Notes: generated by a model not told the origin, from the sequence alone. Shown: positions 1 through 35,249, counted from the stretch's first letter. The stretch: 64,000 nt of DNA from an uncultured Actinomycetota bacterium (GCA_963811945.1 CAWETD010000001.1:1500428-1564427), one strand, 5' to 3'. Numbers and translations: made by a program.

Positions 1-3000
1 CAGCGCCATGTCCACGATCCGCGCGTTGGGCAGTCCTTCGTTGAAGGGCACCCAGGACGTGCCCGCGTCGCCGGAGCGGAAGACGCCGGCCTCGGTGGCC
101 GCGTACACGACGTCCGGCGCGTCCGGGTCGACCTCGAGGCCGTTCACCCCGACGAACCGGCCGGCACCGTCGCGCAGCCCGGCCTCCCGCGGCAGCCACG
201 TGACCCCACCGTCGGCGCTGCGCCACAGCGTGCCGCCCGCCCGGTCCCGTGCGCCGGTGTCGCGGTGCCCGAGGTAGACGATGCGCGGGTCCTCCGGGTG
301 CACGGCGACCGCGCCCACCCGGCGCCCCGACCGTGTCAGTGCTCGGAGCTGGTCCGGGGGCGGGGCCGCCCAGGTGGCGCCGCTGTCCCGGGACGCGAAC
401 ACCGCGCCCGAGGTGCTCCCGACCCAGAGCGTGTCGGGGTCGCTCGGCGCGGGGTGCAGGTCGACCGCCTGGCCTCGACGGAACAGCAGGTCGGTGACGT
501 CCGAGCGGACCCGGCGCACGCCGGCGCCGTAGCGCGCCCGGAGCCGGGCGGCGATCACCCGGCGGAGCTCCTCCACCGTGACCGTCGCCAGGTCCGGCAC
601 GTCGGCCGGGGTGTTGACGCGGACGACGATCGCCGCCCCGACACCGTCGTCGATGCGCAGCACGAGGGCCGTCGCTCCGGGTGGGCGCAGGTCGAAGGTC
701 TCGCCGTTGGGCGGGAACAGGTGCCGTTCCCGGCGGCGCCCTGTGCCCGCCGCTGCCCCGAGCCGCGGGAGCATGGTGCCCGCCAGGGTCATTCCGGCCC
801 CGGCCACCAGGAACGTGAGCTTGACCTGGCGGGTCCGGGACAGCTCGGTCACCTCGACGGCGGCCGGGTCGAGGACCGCCCGCAGCGCCGTGGCCAGCTC
901 GCCGGCCGTCGGTTCGGACGGGTCCGCGCACGTCGTCGCGTCCAGCCGCGCGTTGACCGCCGGGTCGGCGCCGACGGCGACGCCGACGGTGCGGTCCCCG
1001 GCCGGGCTGGGGTTGGTGCTGGCGCGGGTGTACGGCACCAGCGTCACGCTGGCGGGAAGGTCGGCCTCACCCGCGTACGTCCGGGCGCTGGCGCCCAGCG
1101 CCGCCACCGGCGAGCCGCCGGTCGTCAGCACGGTGAAGGCATTTCCGGACAGGGTCAGCCGGGTGGCAGCGCCGACGGCGCGGGTGGCGATGCGCACCGC
1201 GCCGGCGGGGCGCTCGAAGCACAGCCGCGCGTCCAGGTGCGGCGCCTGCGTCGCACGCAGGTAGGCCGCGAGCTGGGCGGGTGTGGTGCGCGCCAGGTCG
1301 GGGATGGTCGGGTGCGCCGCGATCGGCACCCGCCGAACCGTCCCGTCGAGCACCAGCACGAGCTCGTCGCCGCCGACGAGCGCGAACGGGCCGGGCTGCG
1401 CGCACACCACGCGCGCCGTCGCGCGTTCCTGCGGCTCGTCGTCGAAGGCCGCGCGCCGGGTGACGACGGTGTCGGTGGCCAGCTGGGGCGCAAGCCCGAG
1501 CACCCCTGCCGCACGGCTCGGCCGCACCTCGAGCGTCGCGCGCACGCCGATCGGCCGCACGTGCAGGATCTCCAACCGGTCCCCCACGTCCAGCGGCACC
1601 CACGTCTCCCCGGACGTGTCGGTGCCGTACAGCCGGCCCTCGCGGGTGTGGTAGGCGCGGCCCTTGTCCCTCGGGTGGTGGGCGGTGTCCGCCACGAAGG
1701 CGGCCGGATCGGTGCGCAGGAACCCGGTCGTGAGGGCGCGGGAGGCCAGCGGCACCGGTCGGTGCGCCTGGGCGGTGAGCACGTCGTCGACCATGCCGGG
1801 GAAGGACAGGCGGCTCACGTCGTTCTGCGAGGTGACGAGCATGCCGTACGCGTCGTCCGGCGCGAAGGCGACGAAGCCACCGTCACCGCCGCCGATCGAC
1901 GCCCACGACCGGCCGCCCGTCGTCACCCAGCAGCCGTTGTCCTGCAGCCCCACGGCCAGCGTGCCCGGGACGAACGGGTGCTGCGACATCGAGTACATCA
2001 TCGTCGCGTCGATGCCGTGCCCGCGCTTGCGCCAGGCGGCCGCCGTGTCCGGCACCTCGTCGTCGTCGGTGATCGCGATCCGGGTGACGCCGGCGATCAC
2101 GTCGTCGAGGTCCGCCAGTGGTCGCCACTCCTTGTCCGCGGGCGTCTGCGGCGCCACCGGGTGCCAGTCCAGCGACCGGCTGATGCCACCGTCGTTGGCC
2201 ACCCACAGCGCACCGCGCGGGTTGCCCGGGTCGTCCCGGAACAGTGCCGCGTGCTGGTCGGCATGATGAGCGCGGTCACGCTGGTTGTGGTCCCAGGCCA
2301 TGATCCGGATGAAGCCTGCCGCCACCGTCGGCGGTGCACCGGCGGCTGCCCGGTCGGCGTCGTAGGACAGGTGCAGCTCGGTCAGCCCGGTGAGCACCGT
2401 TCCCGGCTCGTGCGGGTGCACCGCGATGCACAGGTTGTACGACGCCTGGCCCGCCGTCGGCCAGTGCGGGTGGTCGCGCACCCGGTCCCAGCGGGTGCCG
2501 GCGGGCTCCGGCAGCGCCCGGGTGGCGAGCAGCGTGCGGAACAGCCCGAGGTGTCGCTCGCCGTCGGCGCGGGTCACCCGAAGGTAGGCGACCTCCGGGT
2601 GGTCGGCGCAGATCGCCAGCTTGGCCCGCGCGGGCCGGTCGCCGGCCGCGACGTCGGCGCCCGCGGGCGGCTGCACCTGCATGCGGTTGCCGGCCGCCGC
2701 CAGCCCGGCGTTGACGTCGGCGACCGAGGCCCGGGGAGGCAGCTCGAGGCGGATGATGCGGATCGAGCCGCGGGCGTTGCGATCGTCCGGCACCAGGTAG
2801 AGCAGCCGGTCGCCGGCGCCGCCCGCTGCCGGTGAGTAGACGACGTCGGTGAACCGCTGTCCGGCCAGGTGCTGGGACCATGCGCCACCGCCGTCGACGG
2901 TGCGGAACACACCGGTGGCGCCGACCGCCCAGCAGACCTCGCCGTCGTCGGGGTGCACGGCCAGCGCCTCGAACCGCAGCCCCAGGTTCGGCGCGACCCC

Positions 3001-3687
3001 GGGCGGGGTGGGCGCCCCGGCGACGTCCCAGGTGTCGCCGCCGTCCCTGCTGACGTGGATGCCGTCGCCCACGTACAGCCGCTCCTCGCTCTCCGGCTCG
3101 CCGGTGGCGGCGTAGACGATGCTGGCCGCGCCGACCCGTCCGACCGCGAGCGCGCCGATGGCGAGGCTGCGCTGGTCGTGCCAGAGCGACTCCCAGGTCT
3201 CACCGCGGTTGCGCGTCCGGTAGACGCCGCCAGCGGCAGCCCCGGCGTAGAGCGTGTCCGCGTCGACCGGGTCGCCGACCAGGGCCCGCACCCGGCCACC
3301 GACGTTGCGAGGTCCGGTGGGGACCCAGTTGTGCCGGGCCCAGATCGGCTCCGCGCCCGTGGTGGCGACCGGCCGGGCAGCCCGGCTGCCCGCGGCCACC
3401 GGTGGGGTGCCGCGGGGCACGGCGACCACGGGCGGCAGCTGCGTCGGGGGGTCGGCCTGCACGTCGTCGGGACCGGTCTCGTCGACGGGCGTGGGGGGCA
3501 GCGGCGACGGCGGGTCCTCGGGCGCCTCGTCACCCGGCTCCGGCTCGGCCGGCTCCGCCGCCTGCCCGCGCACGGCGGGCACCGACGGCCGGTCCAGGAA
3601 CCACTCGGCCTTGCTGGCCAGGTCGGCGTCGATGCGCCCGCCGATGACCGAACGGGTGGTCACGACCTCGGGGATCGGGTCGGTCAT
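1..3687 (-). CDS. BNR/Asp-box repeat beta-propeller protein (sortilin/GH74-like). The first 1229 codons are in the window and the 3' end runs off the left edge. It is the last visible gene of the tail operon.
   Basis: Absent from the ORF track because there is no stop in the window. My own minus-strand translation from ATG 3687 (ATGA overlap with the upstream stop) gives [13 protein letters not shown]... It contains Asp-box-like motifs YRTRNRGETW, HVSRDGGDTW, FRTVDGGGAW and FRSGDAGTSW, plus GLQDNGCW. The same frame is found at 3687, about 3240, about 2040 and 147. Confidence 0.8.
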   Translation of the reverse strand, partial: MTDPIPEVVTTRSVIGGRIDADLASKAEWFLDRPSVPAVRGQAAEPAEPEPGDEAPEDPPSPLPPTPVDETGPDDVQADPPTQLPPVVAVPRGTPPVAAGSRAARPVATTGAEPIWARHNWVPTGPRNVGGRVRALVGDPVDADTLYAGAAAGGVYRTRNRGETWESLWHDQRSLAIGALAVGRVGAASIVYAATGEPESEERLYVGDGIHVSRDGGDTWDVAGAPTPPGVAPNLGLRFEALAVHPDDGEVCWAVGATGVFRTVDGGGAWSQHLAGQRFTDVVYSPAAGGAGDRLLYLVPDDRNARGSIRIIRLELPPRASVADVNAGLAAAGNRMQVQPPAGADVAAGDRPARAKLAICADHPEVAYLRVTRADGERHLGLFRTLLATRALPEPAGTRWDRVRDHPHWPTAGQASYNLCIAVHPHEPGTVLTGLTELHLSYDADRAAAGAPPTVAAGFIRIMAWDHNQRDRAHHADQHAALFRDDPGNPRGALWVANDGGISRSLDWHPVAPQTPADKEWRPLADLDDVIAGVTRIAITDDDEVPDTAAAWRKRGHGIDATMMYSMSQHPFVPGTLAVGLQDNGCWVTTGGRSWASIGGGDGGFVAFAPDDAYGMLVTSQNDVSRLSFPGMVDDVLTAQAHRPVPLASRALTTGFLRTDPAAFVADTAHHPRDKGRAYHTREGRLYGTDTSGETWVPLDVGDRLEILHVRPIGVRATLEVRPSRAAGVLGLAPQLATDTVVTRRAAFDDEPQERATARVVCAQPGPFALVGGDELVLVLDGTVRRVPIAAHPTIPDLARTTPAQLAAYLRATQAPHLDARLCFERPAGAVRIATRAVGAATRLTLSGNAFTVLTTGGSPVAALGASARTYAGEADLPASVTLVPYTRASTNPSPAGDRTVGVAVGADPAVNARLDATTCADPSEPTAGELATALRAVLDPAAVEVTELSRTRQVKLTFLVAGAGMTLAGTMLPRLGAAAGTGRRRERHLFPPNGETFDLRPPGATALVLRIDDGVGAAIVVRVNTPADVPDLATVTVEELRRVIAARLRARYGAGVRRVRSDVTDLLFRRGQAVDLHPAPSDPDTLWVGSTSGAVFASRDSGATWAAPPPDQLRALTRSGRRVGAVAVHPEDPRIVYLGHRDTGARDRAGGTLWRSADGGVTWLPREAGLRDGAGRFVGVNGLEVDPDAPDVVYAATEAGVFRSGDAGTSWVPFNEGLPNARIVDMAL

Positions 3688-6227
3688 GGCACCAGGTCCA
3701 GCAGGAAGCGCACGGCGTCGGACAGCTCCCGGTTGGTGGGGGCGGCCGCACCGGCGCCCCCAGGGGGCAGCGGGGTGTACGGCATGCTCGTCGGGGCGTT
3801 GGTGTCCGCGGTGAGGTCGGCCGCCATCCGGCTCCACGCCCGGAAGGCGCCGACCCACCCGAGGCTGTCGGCAACCCTGGCCCCTCCCGGGGCGGGGCTC
3901 GCGTACCCCACCGGTGTCGGGATCATCGTGGGGTCGCGGTCGGCTGGCGCACCGCCCTTCTCGCTCGCGGCGCCCCCACCGACCAGCATCTGCCACTCCC
4001 CCAGGCGCCGGGTGTCGAGGTTCCACTGCCGGAACACCTGGTGCACGCGGCGCAGCGCCGGGTCGGGAGGCAGTGGCTGACCCGGCACCGGCGCGACCGC
4101 CAGCGGCGCGTCCGACAGGTGGCTTGCCGCACCCATGCACAGCAGGGCGGCGAGGTCCGAGGCCAGGCCGACGCCCGTGTCGTCGAGCTCGCCGAGCGCC
4201 ACCTCGGGCACCAGGGGGAAGCCCGCCAGCGTGGACGCGGCCGGTCCGCCTACTCCTACCGTCGTCGTCCAGCCCACCCGGGGCGCGTGCCGGAGCAGCG
4301 CTGCCCCCTCGGAGTCGTGCCCGAGCGGGATCACGTCGGCGGCGTGCGCGTCGTGCTCGGCGTTGGTCGGCCGCAGGTCACCAGGGTCGGCGAAGGTCGC
4401 CGGCCACGGCAGCCGGTACGCCGGGTCGGTGGCGCCCGTCGACTCCACGTGCAGCCCGGCGACGCCCGCTCCGGCGAGCAGGGTCACCACCTCGGCGACC
4501 GTCGAGCCGGCGGGGGGCAGCCGCACATCGACCGTGCTGCCGTCCCCGCGGGTGAAGGTCACGGTGTCGCCGTGCCCGGCCACCGCGAGTGCGACGCCGT
4601 CGTCCGACCACAGCCGGACCAGGGGCCGGGCGCCCGACGGGTAGCGGGCGTCGGCGAGGGTCGGCGCGGCCACCGCCGGGTCGTTCCAGAGGGTGGCCTC
4701 GTCGAAGACGCGGGCCAGTGCGGTGAGGCCGCCGACACCCGTACCCAGGCTGTCGGCCGGTGGCAGTGCGTCGGTGAACAGCCGGTCGATGGTGAACGAG
4801 TGCTGCAACCGCAGCGCCAGCACCACGGCCCCGATCAGCGACCCCACGGTGAGCAGGACGATCACGATCCACCAGACGGCGTCCTCGTCGATCAGCTTGA
4901 GCAGAGTGTCCAGCACGAGGTCCAGCAGGGCGGTCGCGAACGGCAGCAGCTGGAGCAGCATCACGAAGCCGTCGCCGCGGCGCCCGTCGCGGTAGGCCAG
5001 CCCCGCCTTGATCCCGGCGAAGGCGTCGGTGCCGAACTGCCCGAGCAGGAGCAGCCAGCGCAACAACGGGTGGTCGTCGTCCTCGGCGCGCAGCAGCGTG
5101 GTGACGGTCAGGCCCATCCGCGCCAGGAACAGGACCAGCGCGGTCACGAACAGCCCGGTGTGCTCGGGCACCTGGGACCACAGGTACATCGACCAGGCGA
5201 ACGGGGCGATCGACGCGACCCCGGCGGTGACCGAGAGCAGCTCCGACACCGAGCGCTCGGTGATGCTCGCACCGGAGGTGGTGAAGGCACCCGACGAGGG
5301 GAGCAGCCGGGCCACCAGCAGTCCGCCGGCGGGCGCGAGCGCCGCGGGGGACAGGACCAGCGCCCAGATCGGCCAGCTCCAGTCGGCCACGGCGGCTCCC
5401 GCAGCGACGGTCTCCTGGGCCGCGCGCAGTCGCTCCTCGGTGAGCTCGCCCTCCTCGCCCAGGCTCGCCTCGAACGCGGCGAACCCGTGCGGCCGGTTCG
5501 CGTCCGGACCGAACACCTGGGTGTACGCGGCCGCGTAGCCGGCGAGCAGGGCGGGTGGCACCTCGGCGGCCGTGGGTGCCCACGACCCCCACCGCGCGTC
5601 GCCACCCGGCCCGAGCAGCAGCCGCAGCAGGTGCGTACGCGCCAACCCGACCTCGACCGACGGGTCGCCCGGGCCGGGCTCGCGCCGGGTGCGGCGGGCC
5701 TGCAGGTCGCGGCGCAGCGGTCCGGTCACCACCTCGCCGGCTGCCGTGCTGAGCATCCCCAGGGTGTAGGCCCGGATCCGCGCCCGCTGGTCCGGGTCGG
5801 CGGTGCGGCTGAGCCCCTGCTGTCCGACGGCGAGGGCGAACTGCATGGCCCGGGTGACCACCGGCGACAGGTCCGGGTCGGGGCCGCCGGTGCGCAGCAG
5901 CGTGCTGCGCCACGCGGGCCCGGAACGGCCTTGCGCGAGCCCGGCCAGGTCGAACCCCGTGGTGCCGAGCACGGCGAAGCGCCCCAACGACGGGCGCAGC
6001 GCCGGCCCGGGCCGCAGGGTGACCGGGACCCCGCCACGGAGCATGTCGCGAGCGGCGGTCGCGAGCGCCAGCACCCGTCGCTCCGTCGCCCGCACCGTGA
6101 CCGTGCCGCCGCCGGCGTCGCTGGAGAACGACCGGGCGCGGACCTTGCGCTCGAGCTGGTCGACGAGGTCGGAGAGGCGCTCGTGGGTGAGCAGCAGGAC
6201 GGGCGGACCGAGCAGTGGTGGCGTCAC
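3684..6227 (-). CDS. Polytopic membrane protein of unknown function (847 aa) inside the tail operon
   Basis: Long ORF with normal actinobacterial composition. ATGA overlaps on both sides. A central block of hydrophobic helices (e.g. [70 protein letters not shown]) is flanked by soluble N- and C-terminal regions of about 300 aa each. Confidence 0.75.
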
Positions 6228-9200
6228 GGCAGCGCCTCCTGCAGCTCGGACAGGGCGTCGCCGGTACGTACCAGGCCGTCGTCGAGCTGCGCCGCGATGC
6301 TGTCGAGGGCGGCCAGCACCGGTTCCAGCACCCGTCCGACATCGACCGCGGCGACGGCGGCGACCACCTCGTCGTACGCGAGCAGGGCGGGGCGGGCCAC
6401 GACGGTCGGGCGGAACTGCTCGGCGACCCGGGCCACGGCGTCGCGCATCGTCACGAGAACCGGCTCGACGCTGGTCAGCGGGTCGAGAGTGCGCACCGTC
6501 TCCACCAGCGCGTCGAGCTGGGCGATGGTGGGCTCCAGCAGGGTCGCCGGCCGCAGCTCCACCACCGTGGACCGGATGTCGGCCCAGACCGGCTCGATCT
6601 CGTCCACCACGAACGAGACGTCCAGCGCGTCGAGAACACCGGCGACGTCGTCCAGGGCGACCTGCAACGGCGCGAGCAGGCCCTCGCGGACGGCACGCAC
6701 GACCTGGTCGCGAAGGCCGGCGACGACGGGGATGAGCGGGGCGAGCACGCGCTCCGGCGGCGACGCGGCCAGCAGGTCCGCCACCGCGTCGCGCAGGTCC
6801 GTGCCGACCTCCACGCCCAGGCCCGCCAACAGGTCACGCAGCCGCTGCGGCACCACCGTGAGCGGTCGAAGCGCGTCGCGCAGCCCACGGGACACGGCGG
6901 CGAGCTCGCTGCGGCCGTCCGCGGTCATCCCGGCGACCAGGTCGGCGACCTGTCGCAGCAGCGTCAGGTAGCGCTCGCGGCCCGCGACCAGGGTGCCCAG
7001 GGTCTCCCGCGGGTCAGCACCCGCCAGCTCCTCGAGCACCCGTCCGCGCAGCACGCTGTCCTCCGGCAGGTCCGCGGCAGCGGCGGTCACCGCGTCGTAC
7101 GCCGTGGTGAGCGCGACCGTCAACGGCACCGGGTCGAGCCCGTCCACGACCTCGACCGCACGACCCAGCGCACCGGCCGCCTCCGCGATCCGGTCATGGA
7201 CGTCGGCCGCCGCGTCCACCGCTCCCCCCACCCAGCCGCGAACGGTGTCGAACGCCTCCGGACGGACCACGAGCGGCGTGGACTGCAGCAGCCCGCTGAC
7301 CAGCACGCCGACCCCGCTCGGGCGGTTGGGCTCCGGGCTGCGCACCGTGGCCACCAGGTCGTCCCACAGGCCGGCGAGCAGCGCGGCGAGCGGGGTGAGG
7401 TCGACCCGCGCGGCCAGCGAGTCGATGACGCCGTCGGCCGCGTCGAGACGTTCCTGCCAGGTGTCGAGGGCGAGTGTCTCGCGCACGGAGCCGACGGTCT
7501 CCGACACCTCGCCGAGCACGGGCTGCAGCAGCACCGACGGCTGCAGTGCGTCGACGACGTCGAGCACGGAGTCGAACGCCGCGTCGACGGGAGCGAGGAG
7601 CTCGCGCAGGTCGACGGTGCCGAGTGCGGCAGCGGCCTCGGCGAGCAGGTCGTGCACCGGCGCCAACGCTTCGGCCGGGTCAAGCGCGCGCACCTGTGCG
7701 AGGAACGGGTCGAAGACCTCCGCCTCGAACGTGACCAGGGCCCCCTCCGGATCGTGCTCCTCGAGGAACGCGACCACCTCCTGCTGGGCCAGCCGTACGC
7801 CCTCGAGCACCGCGACGTCGACTCCGGCACGGATCTCGTCCAGCTGGGCCAGCAGCGGCACCACCACCTCGGCGTCGAAGTCGATCGCCTTGACCGGGGC
7901 GGTCGCCTCGCTCAGGTCGGCTCGCACGTCGTCGGGCAGCAGGTCGACCGGGACCGCGGCGACGACGTCGGCCGTCGTCTCCATCACGTCGACGGCGGTG
8001 TCGAAGTACGGCGAGAGCTCGGCCGACTGCAGCGCCGCCACGACCGGGTCGAGCGCGGCCTGGATCTCGGCGCCCAGCTCGGCGAGGTGCAGGCCGGCCA
8101 CGAACCCGCGGACCCGCTCGAACGCGGCGGCGACGTCACCGGCGGCGTCACCGATGTGTGCCTCCACGTCGGCCATCTGCGCGGTGATCGTCTCGGCGAC
8201 GGTGCGTACCGCCGCCTCCGCAGCGCCCACGACCTCCTCGACGGAGCGGATCGCCGCCTCGACCGGGTCCAGCACCAGCCGGATCGCGTCGACGACCGCC
8301 GTGGCGTCGAGCGCCGACGCCGCCTCCAGCACGGTGTCCAGCGCCGCCCGCACGACGGCCACGACCTCCCTCGCGCGCGTCTCGATCTCCCCCAGCGCGC
8401 CGAGCCCGGCGCGGACCTGTGCCGTCACCGGCTCGAACAGTGCCGCCGGGTCGAGGTCGTCGACAGCGTCCGCCAGCCGGCCCGCGACCGCGGCGACCTC
8501 GTCCCACAGCAGGTCGGGGCTGGGCGCGCGGACCGGCACCTCGAAGGCCAGCACCGGGGCCAGCCAGCCGGACAGCGTGCGCGCGAGGTCGGCGACCGCC
8601 GGCACGTCGTCCTCGACCACCTGCTCGGTGGCTGCCCGCAGCCGCGCGTCGAGCGTGGGTACGTCGACGGCGACCAGCGCCGCCTCCCCGAACCCGAGGC
8701 CCGTACGCAGCAGGTCGACCGTCGCCTCGATGGTGCCCCGGACCTCGCGCGCCATGGTCGCGATCCGGTCGGCCTCGACGGCGTCATGAGGGTCGGCGGC
8801 ACCGATGGCGGCGACCACGACCGAGCCGTTGGCCAGGGCTGCGACCCGGGCCCGCGCGGCGTCGACCCGGTCCTGGTCGAGCAGCCGCTCGACGCCGGAC
8901 CCGAGCACGGACAGCTCGCGCACCGCGCTCTCCGCCGCCATCAGGGCACCGACCAGGCGGACCAGCGCGGCCAGGCCGGGGGCCGGGCCGCGCACCAGGT
9001 CGAGCACGTTCTGCAGCGACAGCCCCGGGACCAGGCCGGTCAGGGCGTCCACGCTCGAGGCCACCTCGGGCTCGGCGAGGACGGCCTGCAGCCGCCCGAA
9101 CGCAGCAGTCAGGGACCCGAGCCCGGTCGCGGGCGGGCCGGCGGCTCCCGTCGTCGCCATCCGGTCGAGCAGGCCGCGCGAGCCGGGGTCGAGCAGCAGC

Positions 9201-9493
9201 CGCACCGGCACCAGCAGGTCTGCCAGCGGACCGAGCAGCTCGCCGGTTGCCGGCAGCCGGGCGAGCGTGCCGGCGGAGTCCTGCGTGGCTCGGGACACCG
9301 CGCCCAGCAGGCCGGTCGTGTCCAGCTCGCCGAGACCGTCGAGACCGGCGGTGACCTCGCCGAGGTCGAGCGCCGTGCCCGGCAGCTCGATGTCTGTGAC
9401 CTCGGTGCCCACGTCGGCGACCACCGAGGCGAGGTCGAACCCGTCCTCTCCCAGCAGGGTGCCGAGCCGCTCGCCCAGCGGCGTCGCTGTCAT
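6224..9493 (-). CDS. Large Ala/Leu/Val/Asp-rich, predicted alpha-helical degenerate-repeat protein (1089 aa), function unknown
   Basis: Start reassigned to ATG 9493 ([11 protein letters not shown]...), which forms an ATGA overlap with the stop of the upstream gene. The 86-aa Arg-rich N-terminal extension in the ORF track looks spurious. Recurrent L-x-P-V/L...LD...V motifs occur ([46 protein letters not shown]). Confidence 0.75.
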
Positions 9494-10818
9494 CCGGCAC
9501 GCACCTCCAGCCACAGCCGGAGGATGCCGCCCGGCCTGGCGGGCGGCTCGTCGACGTCGGGGAGCAGGAAGGCGGCGCTGCCGGACACCGGGCGGCCGTC
9601 GGTTCCGACCAGCAGGTCGGCGCACACCTCCACCCAGATGACGCCACCGGTCTCCGCCACCAGGCTGCCCAGCAGCTTGCGGTCGTCGGTTCGGATCGTC
9701 CAGTTCAGCGTCGGACCGGGTTCGGGCACGACCTGCCCGTGCAGCGCGCACACCGGGGCCAGCGTCCCCTCGGGGGCGCAGCTGACCCGGACCAGCCCGG
9801 TGAGCACCGGTCGGGCCCGGTCCAGGGCCAGCTCGCCGTCGAAGTCGATCGCCAGCCGGCTGAGCTGGGCCAGCGCGTCGGCGAGGACCAGCGGCTCCCT
9901 CGGCTCCCAGCTCAGCCGTCGCGCCCGGATCAGGTCCAGCCGCCCGCCCTCACCGGGAGGTCCCTGCACCCCCTGCGGTCCCCGCTCCCCGCGCGGCCCG
10001 GCCTCGCCCGGCGGGCCCGGCTCGCCCTGCGTCCCCGATGCACCCGGTGCACCCGGTGCACCTTGCGTGCCCGGCTCACCGTTGGCGCCGGCGGCGCCCG
10101 TCTCTCCCCGCGGACCCGGCTCGCCCTGCGGCCCCGATGGCCCCGGCTCGCCGGGGTCGCCCGGCTCGCCGGCGGGTCCTGGCGGACCGGTCTCGCCGAC
10201 AGTCCCCGGCTCACCCGGAGGCCCGGCCGGACCGGCCGGACCCGCGGGTCCCTCCGGCCCCGGATCGGTCGCGCTCGCGACCAGCGGGCCGTCGTAGCGC
10301 CAGGTGCCGGCCGCGTCCTGGAAGTGCTCGCCGGTGTGACCGTGCTCGGCCGGCGTCAGGTAGTGCACCCCGTCGTAGCCGGGGCTCACGCCGCCGTCGT
10401 CCCGGGTCAGGACGGCGACGGTGAGGGTGTCGGCGTCGTCGGGTGGGTCCCCGGGCAGCACCTCCACCGCCGTGTCGAGGTAGACGATCGTCGGCTGGTC
10501 CCCCATCCGGGCGGCGGGGTCGTCGTGGTTGGTCGCGCGCAGCACGACGCTGAACGGCCCGGCACCGTCCGGCACGGTGAGCGCTGCGCCCTCCTCGACC
10601 CGCAGCGGGCGGCCGCCCGAGGTCACCGCGAGGCCGGGCGACAACGAGACCGTGGCGTCGGCCCCCACCTCGATCCGCAGCCCGTACGCGACCGCACCAG
10701 TGCCGGCCGTCCGCCGCAGGTCGTCCGCGGCCTGCTCGGCCGTGGCCTGCGGGTGCTCCAGGTGTGCGGCCGTGACCAGGAGACCGTCCAGGAACCGGGT
10801 GCGCTGCGGGTCGCTCAT
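9490..10818 (-). CDS. Collagen triple-helix-repeat protein, tail-fibre-like (442 aa)
   Basis: 35 uninterrupted G-X-Y triplets (residues 187-291, [19 protein letters not shown]...GPPGEG) sit between globular N- and C-terminal domains. It lies distal to the baseplate genes and has ATGA overlaps at both ends. Confidence 0.85.
9946..10260 (-). repeat. In-frame collagen-like (GXY)x35 coding repeat
   Basis: Direct count of Gly at every third residue over 105 residues of the 442-aa ORF. Confidence 0.9.
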
Positions 10819-12428
10819 GCGCCGGCCTCCTCATAGACGAGCCGCACGGTCTGCACGCCGTACGTAGCGGGCGCCGCGACCCGAAGGGTCAGCGTCAGCG
10901 ACGCCCCGGCTACGGGCGTGACCGGGGTCGCCGGGCTGAGGGTGACCGGGGTTCCGGGGACGACGTCGGCGGCGGCGTCCGCACCGAGCAGCAGCCGCGC
11001 CGGAGGCACCGGCGCCTGCTCGGGAGGCGTCCCCACGAGCCGTACCGAACCCAGCGGCGGTGGCGCTGCGCGCGCGTGCGACAGCGCCACCACGACACCG
11101 GTGGGGTCGAGCCGGAAGACGGACGCGTCGTCGGCAGCGGAGGCACCGGGTGCCGCCACCGCGAGGTCGACGGTGCCGCGGGCGACCTGCAGCGACAGCC
11201 ACAGCACGTCGTCGTCGGTCGGGGTCGGTACCGGCTTCGCCAGCGCGAGGGTCACCCACTCCGGCGGGCCGGGCGGCGCCAGCCGCTGGGGCGCGGGCAG
11301 GATCAGCGGCGCGAGCACCCCGCCGTCGAGGGGAGCGCCCGGGGCCAGGGACGGGTCGCCGGTGAGCAGGACACCGGCCAGCTCGGCACCGTCCGCGCCG
11401 GCCAGCACGGGGACCCGGACACCGCAGAGCACGCCGAGACGGCGCAGTGGCGCGGCGGCGAGCCGGACCAGGAGCGGGTTGCCGGGTGCCAGGGTGAGGG
11501 CGTACGTGTCCGACCGCGGCGGTCCCACCTCCGGCAGCACCCGCTCGTCCGGCGGGTCGGCGTCGATGCCCGCGATCACGTGGTGCACCCGCCAGCTGCC
11601 GGCGGCCGCGGGCAGGGTCAGCGTGACGTCGTGGTCGCCCTCCTCGTCGGCCACCACCGACGGCGGGACGACACCGAGGTCGACGTCGTGGGTGAGCAGC
11701 AGCGGCGCCTCCACCCGCACCGAGATGACCGCCGGCTGGTCCACCTGGAGGCCGACCGGCACCACCCGGTCGGCGGCACCGATGGCGGCGCGCAGGAACG
11801 TGGTGATGTCGACGTCCGCGCCGGCCTCTGCCGAGCCCTTGGCGAGGATCAGCGCCGGGTCGGCGCGCCAGACGGTCGCACCGTCGACGGTCAGACTCAT
11901 CCCGGTCGGCACGGCAGGCAGCGACGCGAACCCCTCGTTCTGCACCGTGGCCGGACTGGCCGCCCGGTCCAGGTTGACCAGCAGCTTGGTGGTCATCACC
12001 TCGCCCGCGAACGCCGCCTGCCCGCCGCTGATGCTGACTCCGGTCAGGGCGGCGAAGGCCGCGCCGGTCCACGTCAGCACGGACGAGACGCCGACCGGCA
12101 GGTCGAGCCCGGACAGGGTGGCGAAGCCGCCGAAGTCCAGGACCAGGCTGTTGGCGGACGCGGCCGGGTCGTCCCCGGTCGAGCGGACCTGGGCGATGCC
12201 GGACAGCGGGGTGCGGCCCGGCGCCCGGGCCGACACCGTCGCCGTCGCCGCGTCGACCAGCGCCTGCGCGGGCAGCGTCACCGACACCTCGGCCGTGCGC
12301 CCGCTGGGCTCCGCCGGCGACGTGTCGGCGGTCCGGGCGCTGCGGTACAGCCCCCTGTCCACCTCGAACGTGGCACCGGAGATCTCGACCGTGAAGAAGT
12401 CGGCGTCGGCAACCCTGGTCGCGACCAT
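10815..12428 (-). CDS. Hypothetical protein (537 aa), probably beta-rich, in the distal tail module
   Basis: Long ORF with typical composition. ATGA overlap downstream and a 3-nt gap upstream. I recognised no motif. Confidence 0.7.
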
Positions 12429-12431
12429 GAC

Positions 12432-13019
12432 TCAGGCGTTGAACGTCTGGGCGGCCTGCAGCGCGAGGAAAGCGTTGCGCACCCCCGCGCCGGTCGCGGT
12501 CTCGTCGATGTCGATGTGCTGTTCGGTGAACGCGGCCTGGATCACCGACTGGTCCGCCTGGCTGAGAGTCTCCGGGCTGATGTTGCGTGCCAGCACCGCC
12601 CGCACGTCGTCGCGGTCCCGGACGAAGTCGCGGAACACCGTCTCCAGGGGTATCTCGCGCAGCGCCACGTGTGCGTCGGGGACGATCCGCGTCGGCAGGT
12701 CCAGCGGCGATGCCAGCACCACCTCGATCGTCGTGCCCTGGGGGATGCGGGTCCCCGCCGGCACGCTCTGCGCCACCACCCGCGGCTGCAGCAGCGGGAT
12801 GATCGGCACGACCTGGTCGATGACCGAGAAGTCGATAGGCACCACCGGCACCGCGACGCCGTCGCGGGCGATGTTGGCCTGCTTCTCGGCCTCGCCCAGG
12901 TTGACGAAGATCGTGGTCGGGCCGGTTGCCCGCGGCATGTTGAACGCGGTGACGGCGTCCTCGGACAGCGAGATCCGCCTCGGGACCGCCTCCCGGCCGA
13001 TCTCCTCACGACCTGCCAT
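12432..13019 (-). CDS. Hypothetical protein (195 aa) with a PASTA-like segment
   Basis: The ORF is tightly packed in the operon. The segment VVPIIPLLQPRVVAQSVPAGTRIPQGTTIEVVLA resembles the C-terminal half of a PASTA domain. Confidence 0.6.
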   Translation of the reverse strand: MAGREEIGREAVPRRISLSEDAVTAFNMPRATGPTTIFVNLGEAEKQANIARDGVAVPVVPIDFSVIDQVVPIIPLLQPRVVAQSVPAGTRIPQGTTIEVVLASPLDLPTRIVPDAHVALREIPLETVFRDFVRDRDDVRAVLARNISPETLSQADQSVIQAAFTEQHIDIDETATGAGVRNAFLALQAAQTFNA

Positions 13020-13034
13020 GACGTCCTCCTGCTC

Positions 13035-13769
13035 TCACGCGCTGCCGCGCTGTCGGGTGGTCGTCCGTCCGACCACGAGCTCCAGGCGGTTGAGCACGCT
13101 CACGACCTCGTCGTACGTGAGCCCGACCAGGCTGGGCATCGTGACCGTCGCCTCGGACTGGAGCGCTGCCGCCAGCACCAGGCGCACCTCGTCGACGGCC
13201 GGGTCGGCGGCGGAGCCGGCCGCCGGCGTCTGCACGAGCACGGGAGAGTTCTGGTTCGCGCTGGGCATGTTGGTCCGGGCGATCTCCTGCCCGGTGATGT
13301 CGAGGATCTGGTCGACCTGCAGCCCCGCGGCGGTGAGCCGGTTGACGGCCTCCTCGGCACCCACACCGAACAGGTCAGGCACCAGCACCCGGTTGCGCGT
13401 CATCTGCACGAGGACCGGGCCGCTGACCGGCACCGTGACGTCTCGCGCCTCGTTGCCGAACCCGGCCGCCTCCACGTGCACCCGCCAGGGCCCCGGCGTG
13501 ACGCCGGCGACGACGAAGTCGGCCGACCCGGCGAACGGCGCGATGCCCTCGACCGGCCGCCCGACGTCGCTCAGCGGCATGGCGACCACCCGGGCACCGG
13601 GAATGGCACTGCCGTCGGCGCCGCTGACCGACACCGCGACGACCGCGCCGCCGAGCTCGGCGACGACGTCGTACAGGTTGTCGAGCCCGGCGAGGATGGC
13701 GTTCCACGCCTGCGCGGTCAGCGGGCGACCCGGCTGCGCCTGGGTGAGCGCTGGCTTCTCGAGCGGCAT
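13035..13769 (-). CDS. CarboxypepD_reg-like Ig domain plus PASTA-domain protein (244 aa), a candidate receptor-binding protein
   Basis: VAVSVSGADGSAIPGARVV...VTPGPWRVHVEAAGF resembles a carboxypeptidase-regulatory fold. VPDLFGVGAEEAVNRLTAAGLQV...VLVQTPAAGS...VRLVLA and MPSLVGLTYDEVVSVLNRLELVVG match the PASTA pattern. It lies immediately downstream of the baseplate genes. Confidence 0.65.
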   Translation of the reverse strand: MPLEKPALTQAQPGRPLTAQAWNAILAGLDNLYDVVAELGGAVVAVSVSGADGSAIPGARVVAMPLSDVGRPVEGIAPFAGSADFVVAGVTPGPWRVHVEAAGFGNEARDVTVPVSGPVLVQMTRNRVLVPDLFGVGAEEAVNRLTAAGLQVDQILDITGQEIARTNMPSANQNSPVLVQTPAAGSAADPAVDEVRLVLAAALQSEATVTMPSLVGLTYDEVVSVLNRLELVVGRTTTRQRGSA

Positions 13770-13784: not shown

Positions 13785-15386
13785 CTACGGGATGGGGGTG
13801 GGGTCGGGCTGGGCGACGGCCGGCCACAGTCGGGTACCGAGCACCAGGCCGCCGACGGGCTCGGTCGAGCCGGGCTCGCGCACGACGCCCTCGCCGAGCG
13901 TCCACCGGTCGTCGGCGTGCTCGACGTAGACGTGCACTCCGCCCGCGCGGTGCCGGTCGAGCAGCCGTCGGAGCCGGTCGCGGAGCACCGGTTGGGCCGG
14001 CGCGGCACCCTCGGCAGCGTCGAGCCCCAGCAGCCGCTGCGGCAGCCAGAGGCGCACGGCGTACGGCTCGCGCTCCTGCCAGTCGAAGCCGACCTCGGCA
14101 GCGGCGGGCAGCGGCGCGCCCGCCTCGTCGGCGAACACCGAGGCCCGGCCCGCCGGGTCCGCGCCGTCTCCTCCGGCGAACGCCGACCTGTCGGCAGGGA
14201 TGGCGAAGCCGCTCGGTGCGGACCCGAACGCCGCCTCGCCCACGAACAGCACCCAGGTCGACTCACCGACCCGCATCGGCAGCGCCTCCACCAGCCCACC
14301 GGCGTGCGGGAACACCGCGCCGGGGTCGAAGGCGTCGGTCAGCGGACGGGTCACGACGAAGGTCGCCACCCGGTCGGCCGGCGCCGGTTGGTCGTCGTCG
14401 GTGCTGCCGAACACGAAGTCGCCGCGGCGCGGGTCCTCGCTGGCGAACACGCCGCCGGAGAAGGAGTAGCCGCGGCGGGTGACGTTGGCGCCGGCCAGCG
14501 TGATCCGGCCGTCGCTCTCGAAGCGCAGCTCCTGCCCGTCCGGGACCGTGCCGGTGTAGGCAACGCCCTTGCCCGCCCCCGTGTTGACCACCTGCGGCGC
14601 CACGGTGCGGTCCTCGATCCCGCGCACGCGGACCGACACCTGCACCTCGTCGAACCCGCCGCGCAGCTGGCGGAAGACCTCGCCCGGACGACGTGGCACC
14701 GGGTCGACCACCTGCAGCCGGAACGGGTTCTCCTCCAGCGCCAGCAGGTCCTCGTCGGGCTCGACCGTCGCGGAGCCGGCGTCGCCGTCCCGGGTCAGGC
14801 GGAGCAGGTCCAGGCACCGCGCCACGTGCCAGGAGCGGTCGTCGAGATGCGTGATCTCCACGACCTCCAGGGCGAGGAAGGCGGCCGCCGCGCGGAGCAG
14901 CGCCGACACCGTGCCGTTGCCGTCGCGGTGCACCCGGACCAACCGGGTCATGCAGCCGCGCACGGTGGCCAGCACCGCGGCGTACGCCACCAGCCGGTGC
15001 AGTGCCCCGGCCAGCTGAGCGGGATCGTCGAACGCCGACGCCTGGACGCCGAACAGCTCCGGCAGCGTCGCGAGGGCGGCGTCGACGGCCTCGGCCGGCG
15101 CTGCCGGGTCGTCGAGCAGCACGGCGAGGTCGGCGGCGCGGGCCAGCCTGCCCCGAACCAGCTCGAAGGTCTCCGGCCCGAGCCCGTGCAGACCGGCGAG
15201 CAGCAGCAGGTCGGCCTCCTCGTCCAGGCTGTCCAGCCGGTGCGACGCCCGGATCCGGCCCACCTGGGAGGTCTGCACGTCCAGGGCCGTCACCAGCCCG
15301 CCGACCGTCTCGTCCAGGACGGTGCCCGGCCGGTCCGCCCGCAGGTGCGCGGGGAAGCGGGAGAGCACCGTCGCGGTCCTGGTCAT
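13785..15386 (-). CDS. Baseplate wedge protein, gpI/Afp12-like (533 aa)
   Basis: Start reassigned to ATG 15386 (MTRTATVLSRF...), an ATGA overlap with the Baseplate_J gene. Its position directly after the J-like gene matches P2/Mu/eCIS order. No diagnostic motif beyond position and size. Confidence 0.6.
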   Translation of the reverse strand: MTRTATVLSRFPAHLRADRPGTVLDETVGGLVTALDVQTSQVGRIRASHRLDSLDEEADLLLLAGLHGLGPETFELVRGRLARAADLAVLLDDPAAPAEAVDAALATLPELFGVQASAFDDPAQLAGALHRLVAYAAVLATVRGCMTRLVRVHRDGNGTVSALLRAAAAFLALEVVEITHLDDRSWHVARCLDLLRLTRDGDAGSATVEPDEDLLALEENPFRLQVVDPVPRRPGEVFRQLRGGFDEVQVSVRVRGIEDRTVAPQVVNTGAGKGVAYTGTVPDGQELRFESDGRITLAGANVTRRGYSFSGGVFASEDPRRGDFVFGSTDDDQPAPADRVATFVVTRPLTDAFDPGAVFPHAGGLVEALPMRVGESTWVLFVGEAAFGSAPSGFAIPADRSAFAGGDGADPAGRASVFADEAGAPLPAAAEVGFDWQEREPYAVRLWLPQRLLGLDAAEGAAPAQPVLRDRLRRLLDRHRAGGVHVYVEHADDRWTLGEGVVREPGSTEPVGGLVLGTRLWPAVAQPDPTPIP

Positions 15387-17185: not shown

Positions 17186-17670
17186 GTCACCTCCCCCAGC
17201 GCGAACGGGACGACCAGGTTGAGCGGCTCCTCGTGCTCGAGCAGCAGGAGGTCGACCTCGATGCGCACCACGTCGCGTGGCGGGTCGTGGGCGGCACGGA
17301 CGTCGGCGCGGACGACGCGCTCGATGCGCGGTTCCTGCCGGAGTGCCTCGAGGACGAACAGCTTGATCAGGTTCCGGGTGCGCTCGACGTTGGGCTCGCC
17401 GATCAGGTCGTGGTGGCGGGAGCCGTAGTCCGGGTGGCCAAGCGCCGCGAGCTCGCCCCTGCGGGTCATCAGCCGGTTGACGAGCATCTGCACCGCCGCA
17501 TCGACACCGCGCACGGTCGCCAGGTCGCGGGCCGGAGGAACGCCACCGGTCCGGCCGGTCCTCAGGTCGGCGTCCTCCCAGGCGCCGGAGGGTCCCGCAT
17601 AGTCGAGCGCGAGGTCGTCGCCCAGCCGCTGCTCGAGCAGCTTCAAGGCCGCGTCGGACCGCGGGCTCAC
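17182..17670 (-). CDS. GPW/gp25-family baseplate wedge protein (162 aa)
   Basis: GTG 17670 forms a GTGA overlap with the PAAR gene stop. Sequence LLEQRLGDDLALD...VNRLMTRRGELAALGHPDYGSRHHDLIGEPN...LIKLFVLEALRQEPRIERV is typical of gp25. Confidence 0.85.
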   Translation of the reverse strand: MSPRSDAALKLLEQRLGDDLALDYAGPSGAWEDADLRTGRTGGVPPARDLATVRGVDAAVQMLVNRLMTRRGELAALGHPDYGSRHHDLIGEPNVERTRNLIKLFVLEALRQEPRIERVVRADVRAAHDPPRDVVRIEVDLLLLEHEEPLNLVVPFALGEVT

Positions 17671-18002: not shown

Positions 18003-18012
18003 GTCCCCTCCC

Positions 18013-32780: not shown

Positions 32781-34358
<1,578 letters not shown>

Positions 34359-34387
34359 ACAGAGGGCGAGCCCCCTGTGTCCTGTGG

Positions 34388-34807: not shown

Positions 34808-34813
34808 ACCTCC

Positions 34814-35243: not shown

Positions 35244-35249
35244 CTGTCA

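Follow-up and report, generated by a model that had tools for sequence, protein, structure and literature searches.

A conserved seven-gene module, possibly including a membrane-docking complex, in a divergent contractile tail operon of an uncultured Actinomycetota bacterium

In tailocins of the R-pyocin type, which contain a holin/lysin cassette and are near kin of known phages, gpI is followed by a chaperone gene and one or two genes for fibres. In Afp/PVC operons, the fibre gene is followed by the gene for Afp14/Cis14, and toxins are encoded at the 3' end. Canonical T6SS have a recycling ATPase.

The T6SS-like CIS of haloarchaea are encoded by phage-tail-like clusters, in which one conserved cluster-associated protein correlates with the mode of action, and a conserved six-helix putative anchor, Hbor_38620, marks these systems (PMC11566945, Sci Adv 2024). 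In Anabaena, baseplate/fibre-like extensions tie the baseplate of a thylakoid-anchored CIS to an internal membrane, so that "fibre" genes can act as anchors (PMC8894136, Nat Microbiol 2022). The CIS of Streptomyces coelicolor is an actinobacterial, cytoplasmic system with the cluster-encoded membrane protein CisA, which is required for contraction and cell death in Streptomyces (PMC12237407, eLife 2025). Fibres of the eBAP3 type, described for eCIS, consist of an N-terminal attachment domain of ~200 aa, a triple-helical shaft resembling collagen and a small domain at the C-terminus. These fibres, which are common in Actinobacteriota, also include beta-propeller lectins (PMC12923769, Nat Commun 2026). 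By the criteria of one survey, a cluster lacking head genes and ATPase would be placed as phage/R-type bacteriocin-like (PMC12210884).

Here we analyzed a window of 64,000 nucleotides from an uncultured Actinomycetota bacterium, which has a G+C content of 75%. It encodes an operon of tail genes that ends in a module of seven genes, named D1 to D7. The features are given in operon order:

23997-24671, minus strand: U2, conserved, function unassigned
23170-24000, minus strand: U1, conserved, function unassigned
21764-23173, minus strand: sheath, Pfam Phage_sheath_1C 8.4e-9
21260-21760, minus strand: tube, Pfam Phage_tube_2 3.9e-6
20707-21258, minus strand: chaperone-position protein
19649-20815, minus strand: tape-measure-position protein, 388 aa, disordered, with a conserved C-terminus in comparison with a related locus (L012)
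18684-19652, minus strand: gpD-like hub
18013-18687, minus strand: gpV/VgrG-like spike
17667-18098, minus strand: PAAR-position small protein
17182-17667, minus strand: gp25-like sheath initiator, start codon uncertain; the Desulfopila orthologue matches Sheath_initiator and GPW_gp25
15383-17188, minus strand: Baseplate J-like wedge, 601 aa, Pfam Baseplate_J 3.2e-16
13785-15386, minus strand: gpI-like baseplate-position protein, 533 aa, anchor gene for finding related loci
13035-13769, minus strand: D1, 244 aa
12432-13019, minus strand: D2, 195 aa
10815-12428, minus strand: D3, 537 aa
9490-10818, minus strand: D4, 442 aa
6224-9493, minus strand: D5, 1089 aa
3684-6227, minus strand: D6, 847 aa, GTG start
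1-3687, minus strand: D7, more than 1229 aa, open at the window edge

The genes upstream of D1 encode the core of a contractile tail, as sheath, tube, spike/hub, gp25-like initiator and Baseplate_J wedge are found together. The genes between positions 17667 and 20815 were weakly matched by Pfam and NCBIfam models of the Phage_base_V, P2 V, GPD and VgrG-related families. All core proteins scored below every NCBIfam curated cut-off, none matched a CIS-named model, and no PDB entry is related to the sheath at the level of sequence. The chaperone-position gene, tube, sheath, U1 and U2 are all kept in related loci. The gene in front of D1 had been called gpI-like. This name fits its position after Baseplate_J but is not backed by any sequence or structure match: none of its 143 homologues carries a Pfam domain, Pfam, PDB sequences and Foldseek gave no support, and the AlphaFold2 model (pLDDT 76.6) is unmatched in the PDB. 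In eBAP3 loci, by contrast, the gene preceding the fibre matches Tail_P2_I.

No capsid, portal or terminase gene was found in the 39 kb upstream within the window, which encode an amidase, an ABC transporter, a two-component system, oxidoreductases, GGDEF-EAL proteins and a tRNA-synthetase-like gene. An AAA+ domain was detected neither in the operon proteins nor among the called genes of three related loci (L057, L061, L062). At the sequence level, no match to a Pvc16-type cap (Pvc16_N/DUF4255) was obtained, and neither U1 nor U2 was matched by a Pfam or NCBIfam model. Among the T6SS structural families, including the TssJLM-type membrane complex and ClpV, only a weak TssI/VgrG similarity of the spike was seen.

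The first-pass annotation had set the operon beside Afp/PVC systems, a parallel that holds only loosely. The overall order is indeed shared with these eCIS, with sheath/tube, spike, baseplate and fibre followed by large genes. However, there is no AAA+ ATPase, no Pvc16_N-type cap match, no identifiable toxin and no spike plug, the Pfam sheath matches are weak, and a chaperone-position gene and a phage-type tape-measure-position gene are present. R-type tailocins are likewise chromosomal and head-less, lack an AAA+ ATPase, and possess a chaperone and a tape-measure-position gene as well as a fibre after the baseplate. In contrast to tailocins, a further 16 kb of conserved genes lie behind those of the baseplate here, with a polytopic membrane protein among their products, and no phage relative was found in the collections searched. 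The Anabaena CIS has a standard Cis1-16 core with ATPase and cap, unlike the window operon, in which neither an AAA+ gene nor a Pvc16-type match was found. Cis15 and Cis16 are retained in the haloarchaeal clusters and in the Streptomyces CIS, the latter having no fibres. The catalogue of eBAP3-type fibres demanded markers such as Pvc16_N and CIS_tube, neither of which is matched by the window cluster.

All seven ORFs of the module are present on the minus strand with the lengths given in the first-pass annotation, and they make up 56% of the operon within the window, in agreement with its estimate of more than half. The frames of D1 to D5 and D7 show third-position GC values of 0.88-0.94 and second-position values of 0.44-0.61, a coding signal which exceeds that of chance ORFs. 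The frame of D6 failed this GC3/GC2 filter, and its gene call therefore rests on homologues (233 representatives). According to the coordinates, the junctions from the gpI-like gene to D3 have gaps of 15, 15 and 3 nt, and those from D3 to D7 comprise four 4-nt start/stop overlaps. On inspection of the translations, no N-terminus was Sec- or Tat-like, as had been proposed. The expected PASTA, collagen and BNR domains were also recovered, along with a CarboxypepD_reg match below the Pfam cut-off, and the polytopic membrane protein is D6, with six predicted hydrophobic helices.

Module and tail core occur together in the genomes of 29 species, among them Actinomycetota, Desulfobulbales and Sorangium, and at about 30 metagenome loci. 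At the 29 loci found with the gpI-like gene as seed, which cover at least four phyla, D1 (29/29), D3 (27/29) and D4 (26/29) are kept in constant order, and the full order D1-D7 is present in L057 and L062. When metagenome loci were seeded with D5, 22 of 24 contained further module or tail genes wherever a flank exists. The search for module homologues living apart from tail genes therefore gave no sign of a chance fusion of operons. D1, D3, the N-domain of D4, D5 and D6 had no match in 50,697 phage genomes, the gpI-like protein had no relative in IMG/VR, and no similar module genes were found in the plasmids searched. For the sheath, ten phage records gave matches, which were all partial and at 25-35% identity. 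Known myophage fibre or chaperone families were not matched either, the PHROG matches of D4 being confined to the collagen repeat. The seven genes belong together as a genuine part of the tail operon. A fortuitous juxtaposition of a tail operon with unrelated surface and membrane genes was rejected and is practically excluded: apart from the unusual mix of domains nothing points to it, while the same genes recur with the core at about 60 independent loci, which represent several phyla, whether seeded from tail or from module, and the window junctions contain the four overlaps. In the literature searched, no description of this combination was found for a tail system, consistent with the novelty claimed for it.

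D1 consists of a conserved N-terminal motif (PGxPITAQxWNxI), a CarboxypepD_reg-like beta-sandwich (Pfam 6.8e-6) and two PASTA domains (Pfam PASTA E=1e-10). A profile built from 18 D1 homologues finds the PASTA structures of PknB. Its gene directly follows the gpI-like gene in all 29 genome loci. D2 is a small protein with one weak PASTA-like domain (Pfam PASTA 3.9e-4, below cut-off). It was recovered by tblastn in 20 genome loci, and its positional equivalent in Desulfopila likewise has a weak PASTA match. D3 is invariably located between D2 and D4 in 27 genome loci. Pfam, PHROGs, NCBIfam and the phage genomes gave no match to it, nor did a profile search against the PDB, and it is a conserved protein without detectable relatives beyond its own lineage. 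D4 matches Pfam Collagen (4.7e-17). In the alignment of its homologues both ends are conserved and the length of the collagen shaft varies several-fold, giving D4 a fibre architecture with conserved N-domain, variable shaft and conserved head, comparable by description to the eBAP3-type fibres. The N-terminus of D4 weakly resembles NCBIfam CIS13_fam (E=3.8e-5, 23 bits, cut-off 370), which is matched by 1 of 20 D4 homologues. The module had been thought to replace the usual fibre genes. This idea has to be given up, as D4 itself is fibre-shaped and fibres uniting collagen shafts and beta-propeller lectins are catalogued for eCIS (PMC12923769). Receptor binding or a fibre function is the best-supported role for D4 and possibly for D1-D3. 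D1-D4 may belong to the baseplate, where gene order alone places D1-D3. D4 would form a trimeric fibre, with its N-domain bound to the baseplate, a collagen shaft and a distal head, and the PASTA-type proteins D1 and D2 as well as D3 would be additional peripheral structural or binding proteins.

D5 is acidic, rich in Ala, Leu, Val and Asp, and presumably helical. Its length is 1076-1103 aa across 13 actinobacterial loci, and no family, PDB or phage matches were found. The stop codon of D5 overlaps the start of D6. In most loci D5 adjoins D6 or a propeller-D6 fusion, which is encoded by the gene after D5 in ten genome loci; elsewhere it lies upstream of the sheath genes. D7 is built from a Pro-rich linker, a BNR/Sortilin-type beta-propeller, a middle region without domain assignment and a second propeller. 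From full-length homologues (1834-1914 aa), ~750 further residues are expected past the window start, and the full length is probably ~1850-1950 aa. Matches were obtained to Pfam Sortilin-Vps10/BNR (1.8e-9), to the NCBIfam F510_1955 glycosylhydrolase family (2.5e-28, below the family cut-off) and, in the PDB, to GH74 xyloglucanase propellers. Propellers of the D7 type are often fused to D6, resulting in proteins of ~1900 aa and ~2800 aa.

The three genes D5-D6-D7 follow D4 in most Actinomycetota, and the operon ends with D7 in L028 and L044. They are located between U2 and U1 in L043 and L045, and upstream of U2, before the sheath genes, in L061, which carries a duplication of the D6-D7 pair. 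D5 is directly upstream of U1 in the loci of the Desulfobulbales and of Sorangium. By a crude measure, similarity to the window copy co-varies between D5 and the gpI-like protein (rho 0.74, n=18) and between D5 and D6 (rho 0.70, n=13). Across phyla, the block keeps its partners and an identity of 25-40%. D5, D6 and D7 thus behave as one unit, which moves together and can be duplicated, and we infer that they form a physical complex. It was considered whether D5 might instead be the tape-measure protein, equivalent to Afp14/Cis14, which appears very unlikely. In favour of this are the place of D5 right behind the fibre-like D4, a composition that points to a long helical protein, and the narrow range of its length. 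However, the phage-type slot is already occupied by the 388-aa protein after the chaperone-position gene, D5 is translationally coupled to D6 and co-varies with it, and neither a phage genome nor a PDB chain was matched.

D6 comprises an N-terminal helical domain, six long hydrophobic helices (residues 285-477, within a span of ~283-477) and a C-terminal alpha/beta domain. The confident AlphaFold2 model (pLDDT 89.9, pTM 0.89) found no Foldseek neighbour in the PDB or in the viral BFVD. Lys and Arg are enriched at the N-flank, in loop 4 and at the C-flank, which fits an N-in/C-in topology, and D6 is predicted to be an integral membrane protein encoded within the cluster. A signal peptide is absent from D6 and from the large N-terminal fusions, so the soluble parts should stay cytoplasmic. 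The mean hydrophobicity of the helices across the D6 family is moderate, an observation which speaks against docking at a membrane. Hbor_38620 has a cytoplasmic domain of ~150 residues; by description, D6 differs from it by soluble domains of ~280 and ~370 residues and by its likely phospholipase C ancestry, and partners corresponding to D5 and D7 are missing from the haloarchaeal clusters. CisA spans the membrane once and has a periplasmic domain, in contrast to the six predicted helices of D6. The Anabaena CIS is anchored differently, through a transmembrane helix in the fibre-like Cis13 itself and a Cis12 extension.

The Zn_dep_PLPC model (PF00882) does not match D6 of the window. It does match 9 of the 36 homologues in the alignment, as well as 4 of 6 proteins from a more distant subfamily, two of them above the gathering score. 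Following the family alignment, the N-domain of the window D6 would be a degenerate zinc-phospholipase-C-like domain. The seven metal-ligand positions read HDHHHDH in 23 of 77 relatives and GDRMTEG in the window D6. As the metal ligands are lost, the conserved role in this clade cannot be a catalytic one. Most D6 relatives retain an apparently intact phospholipase-C-type site, and some bear tyrosinase or sialidase-like N-terminal domains. With respect to docking, these features are more in keeping with an enzyme or effector than with a passive anchor.

D5-D7 could also be regarded as a conserved payload of delivered effectors, with D6 as a membrane-inserting phospholipase-type toxin, D5 as its chaperone or loader and D7 as a glycan-targeting partner. 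We consider this improbable, and cargo is the least supported among the three proposed functions. The 3'-terminal position in most Actinomycetota, the PF00882 matches and fused enzyme domains of D6 relatives, and the duplicated D6-D7 cassette in L061, which is common for effector genes, are in line with it. However, the block is conserved across phyla like structural genes, unlike the variable 3' toxins of Afp/PVC systems and other eCIS, and lies upstream of the sheath in other loci. Furthermore, the catalytic ligands are lost in the window clade although D6 stays full length. Judging from general lumen size, the folded propellers of 1000-2000 residues fused to D6 would be too big for a tail tube. 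No loading ATPase is encoded, and no adjacent small immunity-like gene was seen in the window.

We prefer, with slightly less than even confidence, an explanation in which D1-D4 form the baseplate periphery and fibre, and D5-D7 a cytoplasmic-membrane docking complex built on D6. Membrane anchoring is the best-supported function for D5-D7. The seven genes would represent an outer module that is specific to this lineage and belongs to a deeply divergent contractile machine without a head, a CIS or tailocin relative lacking an AAA+ ATPase gene. D6 would sit in the cytoplasmic membrane of the producer, with both large soluble domains on the cytoplasmic side. Its N-domain, derived from zinc phospholipase C, would now be a structural membrane-surface domain instead of an enzyme, since the metal ligands are gone. 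The long helical D5 and the giant two-propeller D7 would attach to D6, and the three proteins may dock the baseplate onto the inner membrane face and fix the site, and possibly the timing, of tail firing. Such a role would parallel that of unrelated proteins of T6SS, the Anabaena CIS, the haloarchaeal T6SS-like CIS and Streptomyces (CisA). The absence of a recycling ATPase speaks against docking.

It is possible, though rather unlikely, that the operon encodes a released tailocin- or eCIS-like particle, which is freed by lysis and hits other cells. D1-D4 and D7 would then form an elaborate receptor-binding apparatus, with PASTA domains directed to peptidoglycan, D4 as collagen fibre and the propellers directed to surface glycans. 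D6 together with D5 would serve assembly or release in the membrane of the producer and would not be a permanent anchor. PASTA domains, collagen and BNR propellers are typically extracellular and suit a released wall-binding particle at least equally well as docking. The fibre architecture of D4 with its variable shaft length, as for target recognition, and the catalogued eCIS fibres with collagen shafts and beta-propeller lectins (PMC12923769) agree with release. The missing head genes and ATPase would lead to a phage/R-type bacteriocin-like assignment by the survey mentioned above (PMC12210884), and many D6 relatives keep an intact phospholipase-C-like site, by which the membrane of the producer could be broken. 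An Amidase_2 gene (24745-25620) adjoins the operon 74 nt upstream on the same strand. This gene hints at lytic release and thus speaks against docking, but it is not conserved at other checkable loci, and no holin was identified. In addition, six helices and N-terminally fused propellers without a signal peptide are hard to fit on a soluble particle.

Receptor-binding genes usually differ among close relatives through cassette swapping. D1, D3, D5, D6 and D7 are in contrast conserved across phyla in fixed order, which likewise argues against the released particle.

The docking model can be extended to a new CIS mode common to Gram-positive and Gram-negative bacteria, to which we assign a low probability. 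The tail would assemble at the cytoplasmic face of the membrane on a D6 platform, with D5 as giant helical strut and the D7 propellers. The PASTA proteins D1 and D2, remaining in the cytoplasm, would sense cell-wall precursors such as lipid II, and envelope stress would set off either firing through the membrane of the producer itself or lysis of that membrane. If this holds true, the machine would be a self-contained altruistic death or release device.

A single operon runs on the minus strand from approximately position 24671 to the start of the window, whose G+C content is 75%. ORF calls returned the seven ORFs that lie 3' of the baseplate genes, here named D1 to D7 (244, 195, 537, 442, 1089, 847 and more than 1229 aa), with exactly the sizes claimed in the first-pass annotation. 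Spacing is tight from the gpI-like baseplate gene through D7, with gaps of 15, 15 and 3 nt followed by four 4-nt overlaps. The frames holding D1-D5 and D7 show a third-position GC of 0.88-0.94 and a second-position GC of 0.44-0.61, and by this reading-frame composition the operon genes are real. The D6 frame failed the GC filter, so that D6 as a gene rests on its homologues. The domains reported earlier were recovered with Pfam and NCBIfam: PASTA and a sub-threshold CarboxypepD_reg match in D1, a weak PASTA match in D2, collagen in D4 and Sortilin/BNR propellers in D7. As had also been stated, none of the seven ORFs has a signal peptide-like N-terminus.

The tail core preceding this module belongs to the contractile tail superfamily. 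Its sheath protein matches Pfam Phage_sheath_1C (8.4e-9) and its wedge protein matches Pfam Baseplate_J (3.2e-16). The gene order is as follows, U1 and U2 being two conserved unknowns:

Tail core, first half, minus strand: U2, U1, sheath, tube, chaperone-position protein, disordered 388-aa protein
Tail core, second half, minus strand: gpD-like hub, gpV/VgrG-like spike, small PAAR-position protein, gp25-like initiator, Baseplate_J, 533-aa gpI-position protein
20707-21258, minus strand: chaperone-position gene
19649-20815, minus strand: gene of the 388-aa protein, at the tape-measure position
13785-15386, minus strand: gene of the gpI-like 533-aa protein

The 388-aa protein, whose gene precedes that of the gpD-like hub, is largely disordered and rich in Pro, Ala and Gly; its C-terminus (...RRHGI..E) is conserved and is the only part that recurs in the Desulfopila equivalent (L012:4468-5682). 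The start annotated for its gene lies ~110 nt inside the 3' end of the chaperone-position gene, in another frame, a layout reminiscent of the chaperone pairs that phage tails make by programmed frameshift.

Relatives of these proteins were sought among phages, plasmids and solved structures. Neither IMG/VR nor plasmids yielded a relative of the gpI-like protein, and tblastn of D1, D3, the D4 N-domain, D5 and D6 gave no match in 50,697 phage genomes. For D3, no relative outside the lineage was detectable in Pfam, PHROGs, NCBIfam, PDB profiles or phage genomes. The sheath gave only partial matches (25-35% identity) to ten phage records and has no sequence relative in the PDB, and PDB-sequence profile searches with D5, D3, the gpI-like protein and D6 found no match. 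Profile-profile comparison revealed no internal paralogy for the pairs D3-D4, D1-D4 and D3-gpI-like. The AlphaFold2 model of the gpI-like protein is reasonably confident (pLDDT 76.6) and shows an N-terminal helical bundle and a beta-sandwich, for which Foldseek found no match to any solved baseplate protein. The name gpI-like refers only to its position after Baseplate_J.

For identification of related loci the gpI-like protein was used as seed. It has 143 homologues in an index of 5.8 billion proteins, none of them with a Pfam domain, and the alignment of 36 homologues led to 29 loci in the species-representative genome set. The carriers are Actinomycetota metagenome-assembled genomes, Ilumatobacteraceae, Streptomyces sp. 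SID13031, Kribbella, Nocardioides and Marmoricola, as well as Desulfobulbus, Desulfopila, Sorangium cellulosum So0157-2, one Rhodobacteraceae genome and one Burkholderiales genome. By tblastn with all window proteins, every locus shows the identical order U2, U1, sheath, tube, chaperone-position, hub, spike, baseplate and D1-D4. All 29 loci contain D1, 27 contain D3 and 26 contain D4; the gaps are due to contigs that stop short, apart from one locus in which D4 was not detected. The reverse test, with D5 as seed in metagenome contigs, yielded 24 loci, and all 22 strong ones carry further module or tail genes wherever a flank exists. The full order D1-D7 is present in L057 and L062, two of these related loci, where an unrelated TauE-family gene or a GH16 gene lies downstream of D7; in L028 and L044, D7 is the last operon gene. 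The same tail core thus stands beside the module in loci seeded either way, and the seven genes are, as had been proposed, a genuine part of the tail operon. A chance neighbourhood of module and tail is ruled out by the synteny in the 29 gpI-seeded and 22 strong D5-seeded loci.

D1 is strongly conserved (mean column identity 54% in the homologue alignment) and consists of an N-terminal motif, a beta-sandwich and PASTA repeats resembling those of PknB. D4 homologues have three parts, an N-terminal domain of ~180 aa that contains invariant residues, a Gly-X-Y collagen region differing several-fold in length between loci, and a C-terminal domain of ~140 aa that is conserved. To judge from the sequences, this is the predicted architecture of a fibre, with conserved ends and a collagen shaft of variable length, and the proposal that the module replaces the usual fibre genes does not hold. 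PHROG "tail fibre" matches of D4 are confined to the collagen repeat. The N-terminus of the window D4 matches NCBIfam CIS13_fam, the fibre family of extracellular contractile injection systems (eCIS), weakly (3.8e-5); only 1 of 20 D4 homologues matches it, so that membership is unproven. A 2026 catalogue of eCIS fibres describes eBAP3, an N-terminal attachment domain of ~200 aa, which often occurs together with collagen shafts and with lectins of the beta-propeller type, and which is common among Actinobacteriota (PMC12923769). D4 may belong to these eBAP3-type fibres.

In two D4 homologues (L030:14405-15937 and L019:14702-15871) the collagen region is out of frame for a stretch (RRVSRV, Arg/Ala-rich runs), which probably reflects assembly or frameshift errors within Gly-X-Y repeat DNA. 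In Sorangium cellulosum So0157-2, D4 and D6 are separated by an inserted 579-aa protein (L021:15790-17529). Its N-terminus is of the lipoprotein type (…AASMAGC…), it contains six or seven FG-GAP/VCBS-like repeats, and it is the only module-associated protein seen with an export signal.

D5, D6 and D7 form a linked sub-block. It comes after D4 in most Actinomycetota, between U2 and U1 in L043 and L045, and upstream of U2 in L061, where a second D6-D7 pair lies ahead of the block; in Desulfobulbales and Sorangium loci, D5 is directly upstream of U1. In L061 (1-18800, on an 8.4-Mb contig whose G+C is 75%), D5 is flanked by two tandem D6-D7 pairs, and all of these genes lie upstream of U2, U1 and the sheath. 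Between them and U2 is the gene of a 333-aa protein that faintly matches a PQQ-like propeller, and the D6 copy of this locus has an intact phospholipase-C-type motif. The length of D5 is held at 1076-1103 aa, and its similarity to the window copy covaries, by a crude measure, with that of the gpI-like protein (rho 0.74, n=18) and of D6 (rho 0.70, n=13). That D5 is the tape measure is very improbable, as the tape-measure slot is already occupied and D5 is coupled to D6.

An exhaustive HMMER search with D6 as query recovered 233 representative homologues (119 with E<=1e-30), against only two proteins in a word-indexed search. Many homologues are fusions in which D6 forms the C-terminal 850 residues, preceded by one D7-type propeller region (~1900 aa) or two (~2800 aa), a sialidase-like domain (as in P0129) or a tyrosinase domain. 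The tyrosinase form (L057:10001-13399 and L058:4056-7454) represents one actinobacterial-type locus, with a 68-aa ORF before D6 and a TauE-family membrane protein after D7. A restriction of D6 to a subset of loci was considered and overturned: in ten genome loci seemingly lacking it, D5 is followed by an orthologue of a propeller-D6 fusion (41-52% identity to the homologue P0140), the D6 part lying beyond the fetched flank. This makes it probable that every member of the lineage has D6. The sole D6 case for which no tail linkage was shown is L059:1275-9734, where two propellers and D6 are fused into a protein of 2819 aa; unrelated genes lie downstream, and the 1.2 kb available upstream holds just two small ORFs of 141 and 88 aa.

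The AlphaFold2 model of D6, built with 36 homologues, is confident (pLDDT 89.9, pTM 0.89) and has three parts:

Residues 7-281: N-terminal helical domain
Residues 285-477: six long helices
C-terminal part: alpha/beta domain

Foldseek at E<=0.001 found no neighbour of the model in PDB or BFVD. The N-domain matches Pfam Zn_dep_PLPC in 9 of 36 aligned homologues and in 4 of 6 members of a more distant D6 subfamily, two of these above the gathering score. The His/Asp pattern HDHHHDH is present in 23 of 77 relatives and its central H..H...D is kept in ~57 of 77. The window D6 has GDRMTEG at these positions, and its N-domain is therefore a predicted pseudo-enzyme in this clade. The hydrophobic helices fall within residues 283 to 477. 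Positive residues (Lys and Arg) are concentrated in the N-flank, in loop 4 and in the C-flank; the character of loops 3 and 5 is acidic. No signal peptide is present in D6 or in its relatives with N-terminal fusions. D6 probably spans the membrane six times, with both its large domains on the cytoplasmic side together with any propellers fused to it. As modelled, the D6 family would be a new family of membrane-protein folds whose head resembles phospholipase C.

That D5-D7 are a conserved payload is a less likely and altogether improbable explanation: the block is conserved like structural genes, it stands upstream of the sheath in some loci, catalysis is lost in the window copy, and the folded propellers are too large for the tube. 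The functional statements made here rest by inference on sequence, synteny and a single predicted structure. Tentatively, we favour a division of the module in which D1-D4 would be peripheral baseplate proteins and a collagen-shaft fibre, and D5, D6 and D7 would assemble, at the inner face of the producer's membrane, into a complex for docking whose membrane-embedded base is D6. Functional, not homologous, precedents are the conserved six-helix putative anchor of the haloarchaeal T6SS-like contractile injection system (CIS) (PMC11566945), the Cis12 and Cis13 extensions of the Anabaena CIS (PMC8894136) and Streptomyces CisA (PMC12237407). A carboxypeptidase-regulatory domain in CisA was considered and refuted, the protein being described as having a domain like a periplasmic substrate-binding protein (PMC12237407).

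The main rival is a released tailocin-like particle, in which PASTA, collagen and propellers would bind target envelopes and D6 and D5 would act in assembly or release. We regard it as somewhat unlikely; the phospholipase-type site intact in many D6 relatives speaks for it, as does an amidase gene neighbouring the operon. The surroundings of the operon contain the following features:

24745-25620, minus strand: Amidase_2 (N-acetylmuramoyl-L-alanine amidase) gene, 74 nt upstream of the first tail-operon gene
38214-41066, minus strand: 950-aa ORF with no Pfam match
41097-43421 and 47939-50596, minus strand: two paralogous GGDEF-EAL signalling proteins, <7 kb apart
53084-54265: six-repeat RCC1-like propeller protein, near the GGDEF-EAL pair

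The Amidase_2 product could be a lysin for particle release; the gene was not found at the related loci that could be checked. The protein has a C-terminal extension of ~100 aa. Beyond its gene lie ordinary chromosomal genes (ABC transporter, two-component system, oxidoreductases, GGDEF-EAL proteins, a class-I tRNA-synthetase-like gene and a cyclopropane synthase). G+C drops to 0.68-0.70 across 34000-41066, a stretch that includes the 950-aa ORF. Head, portal and terminase genes are absent from the window, and the cluster is a stand-alone tail-like cluster and not a prophage. Neither an AAA+ ATPase nor a Pvc16-type cap match was found within the window.

Unlike Afp/PVC-type eCIS, the cluster has no ATPase, cap match or variable toxins, and what defines canonical T6SS and prophages is missing as well. 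With R-type tailocins it shares the lack of head genes and of an ATPase, but it differs from them in having 16 kb of extra genes that are conserved and no known phage relative. One metagenome survey drops ATPase-less clusters as phage or R-type bacteriocin-like (PMC12210884), and by its criteria the window cluster, lacking the ATPase Cis15, would be discarded. Such discarding may explain the absence of the lineage from CIS catalogues; it is invisible to current surveys because ATPase or cap markers are required.

The mode of membrane attachment of a contractile tail sets its biology, and it may be a toxin syringe that is released, a weapon dependent on contact or a suicide device. The anchoring solutions described so far, in T6SS, Anabaena, haloarchaea and Streptomyces, use different proteins each. 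Since the carriers include cultured isolates (Kribbella, Streptomyces, Nocardioides, Desulfopila and Sorangium), the question is directly testable. If the favoured reading is true, the lineage would add another anchoring solution, with unusually large and conserved parts, found in both monoderm and diderm phyla.
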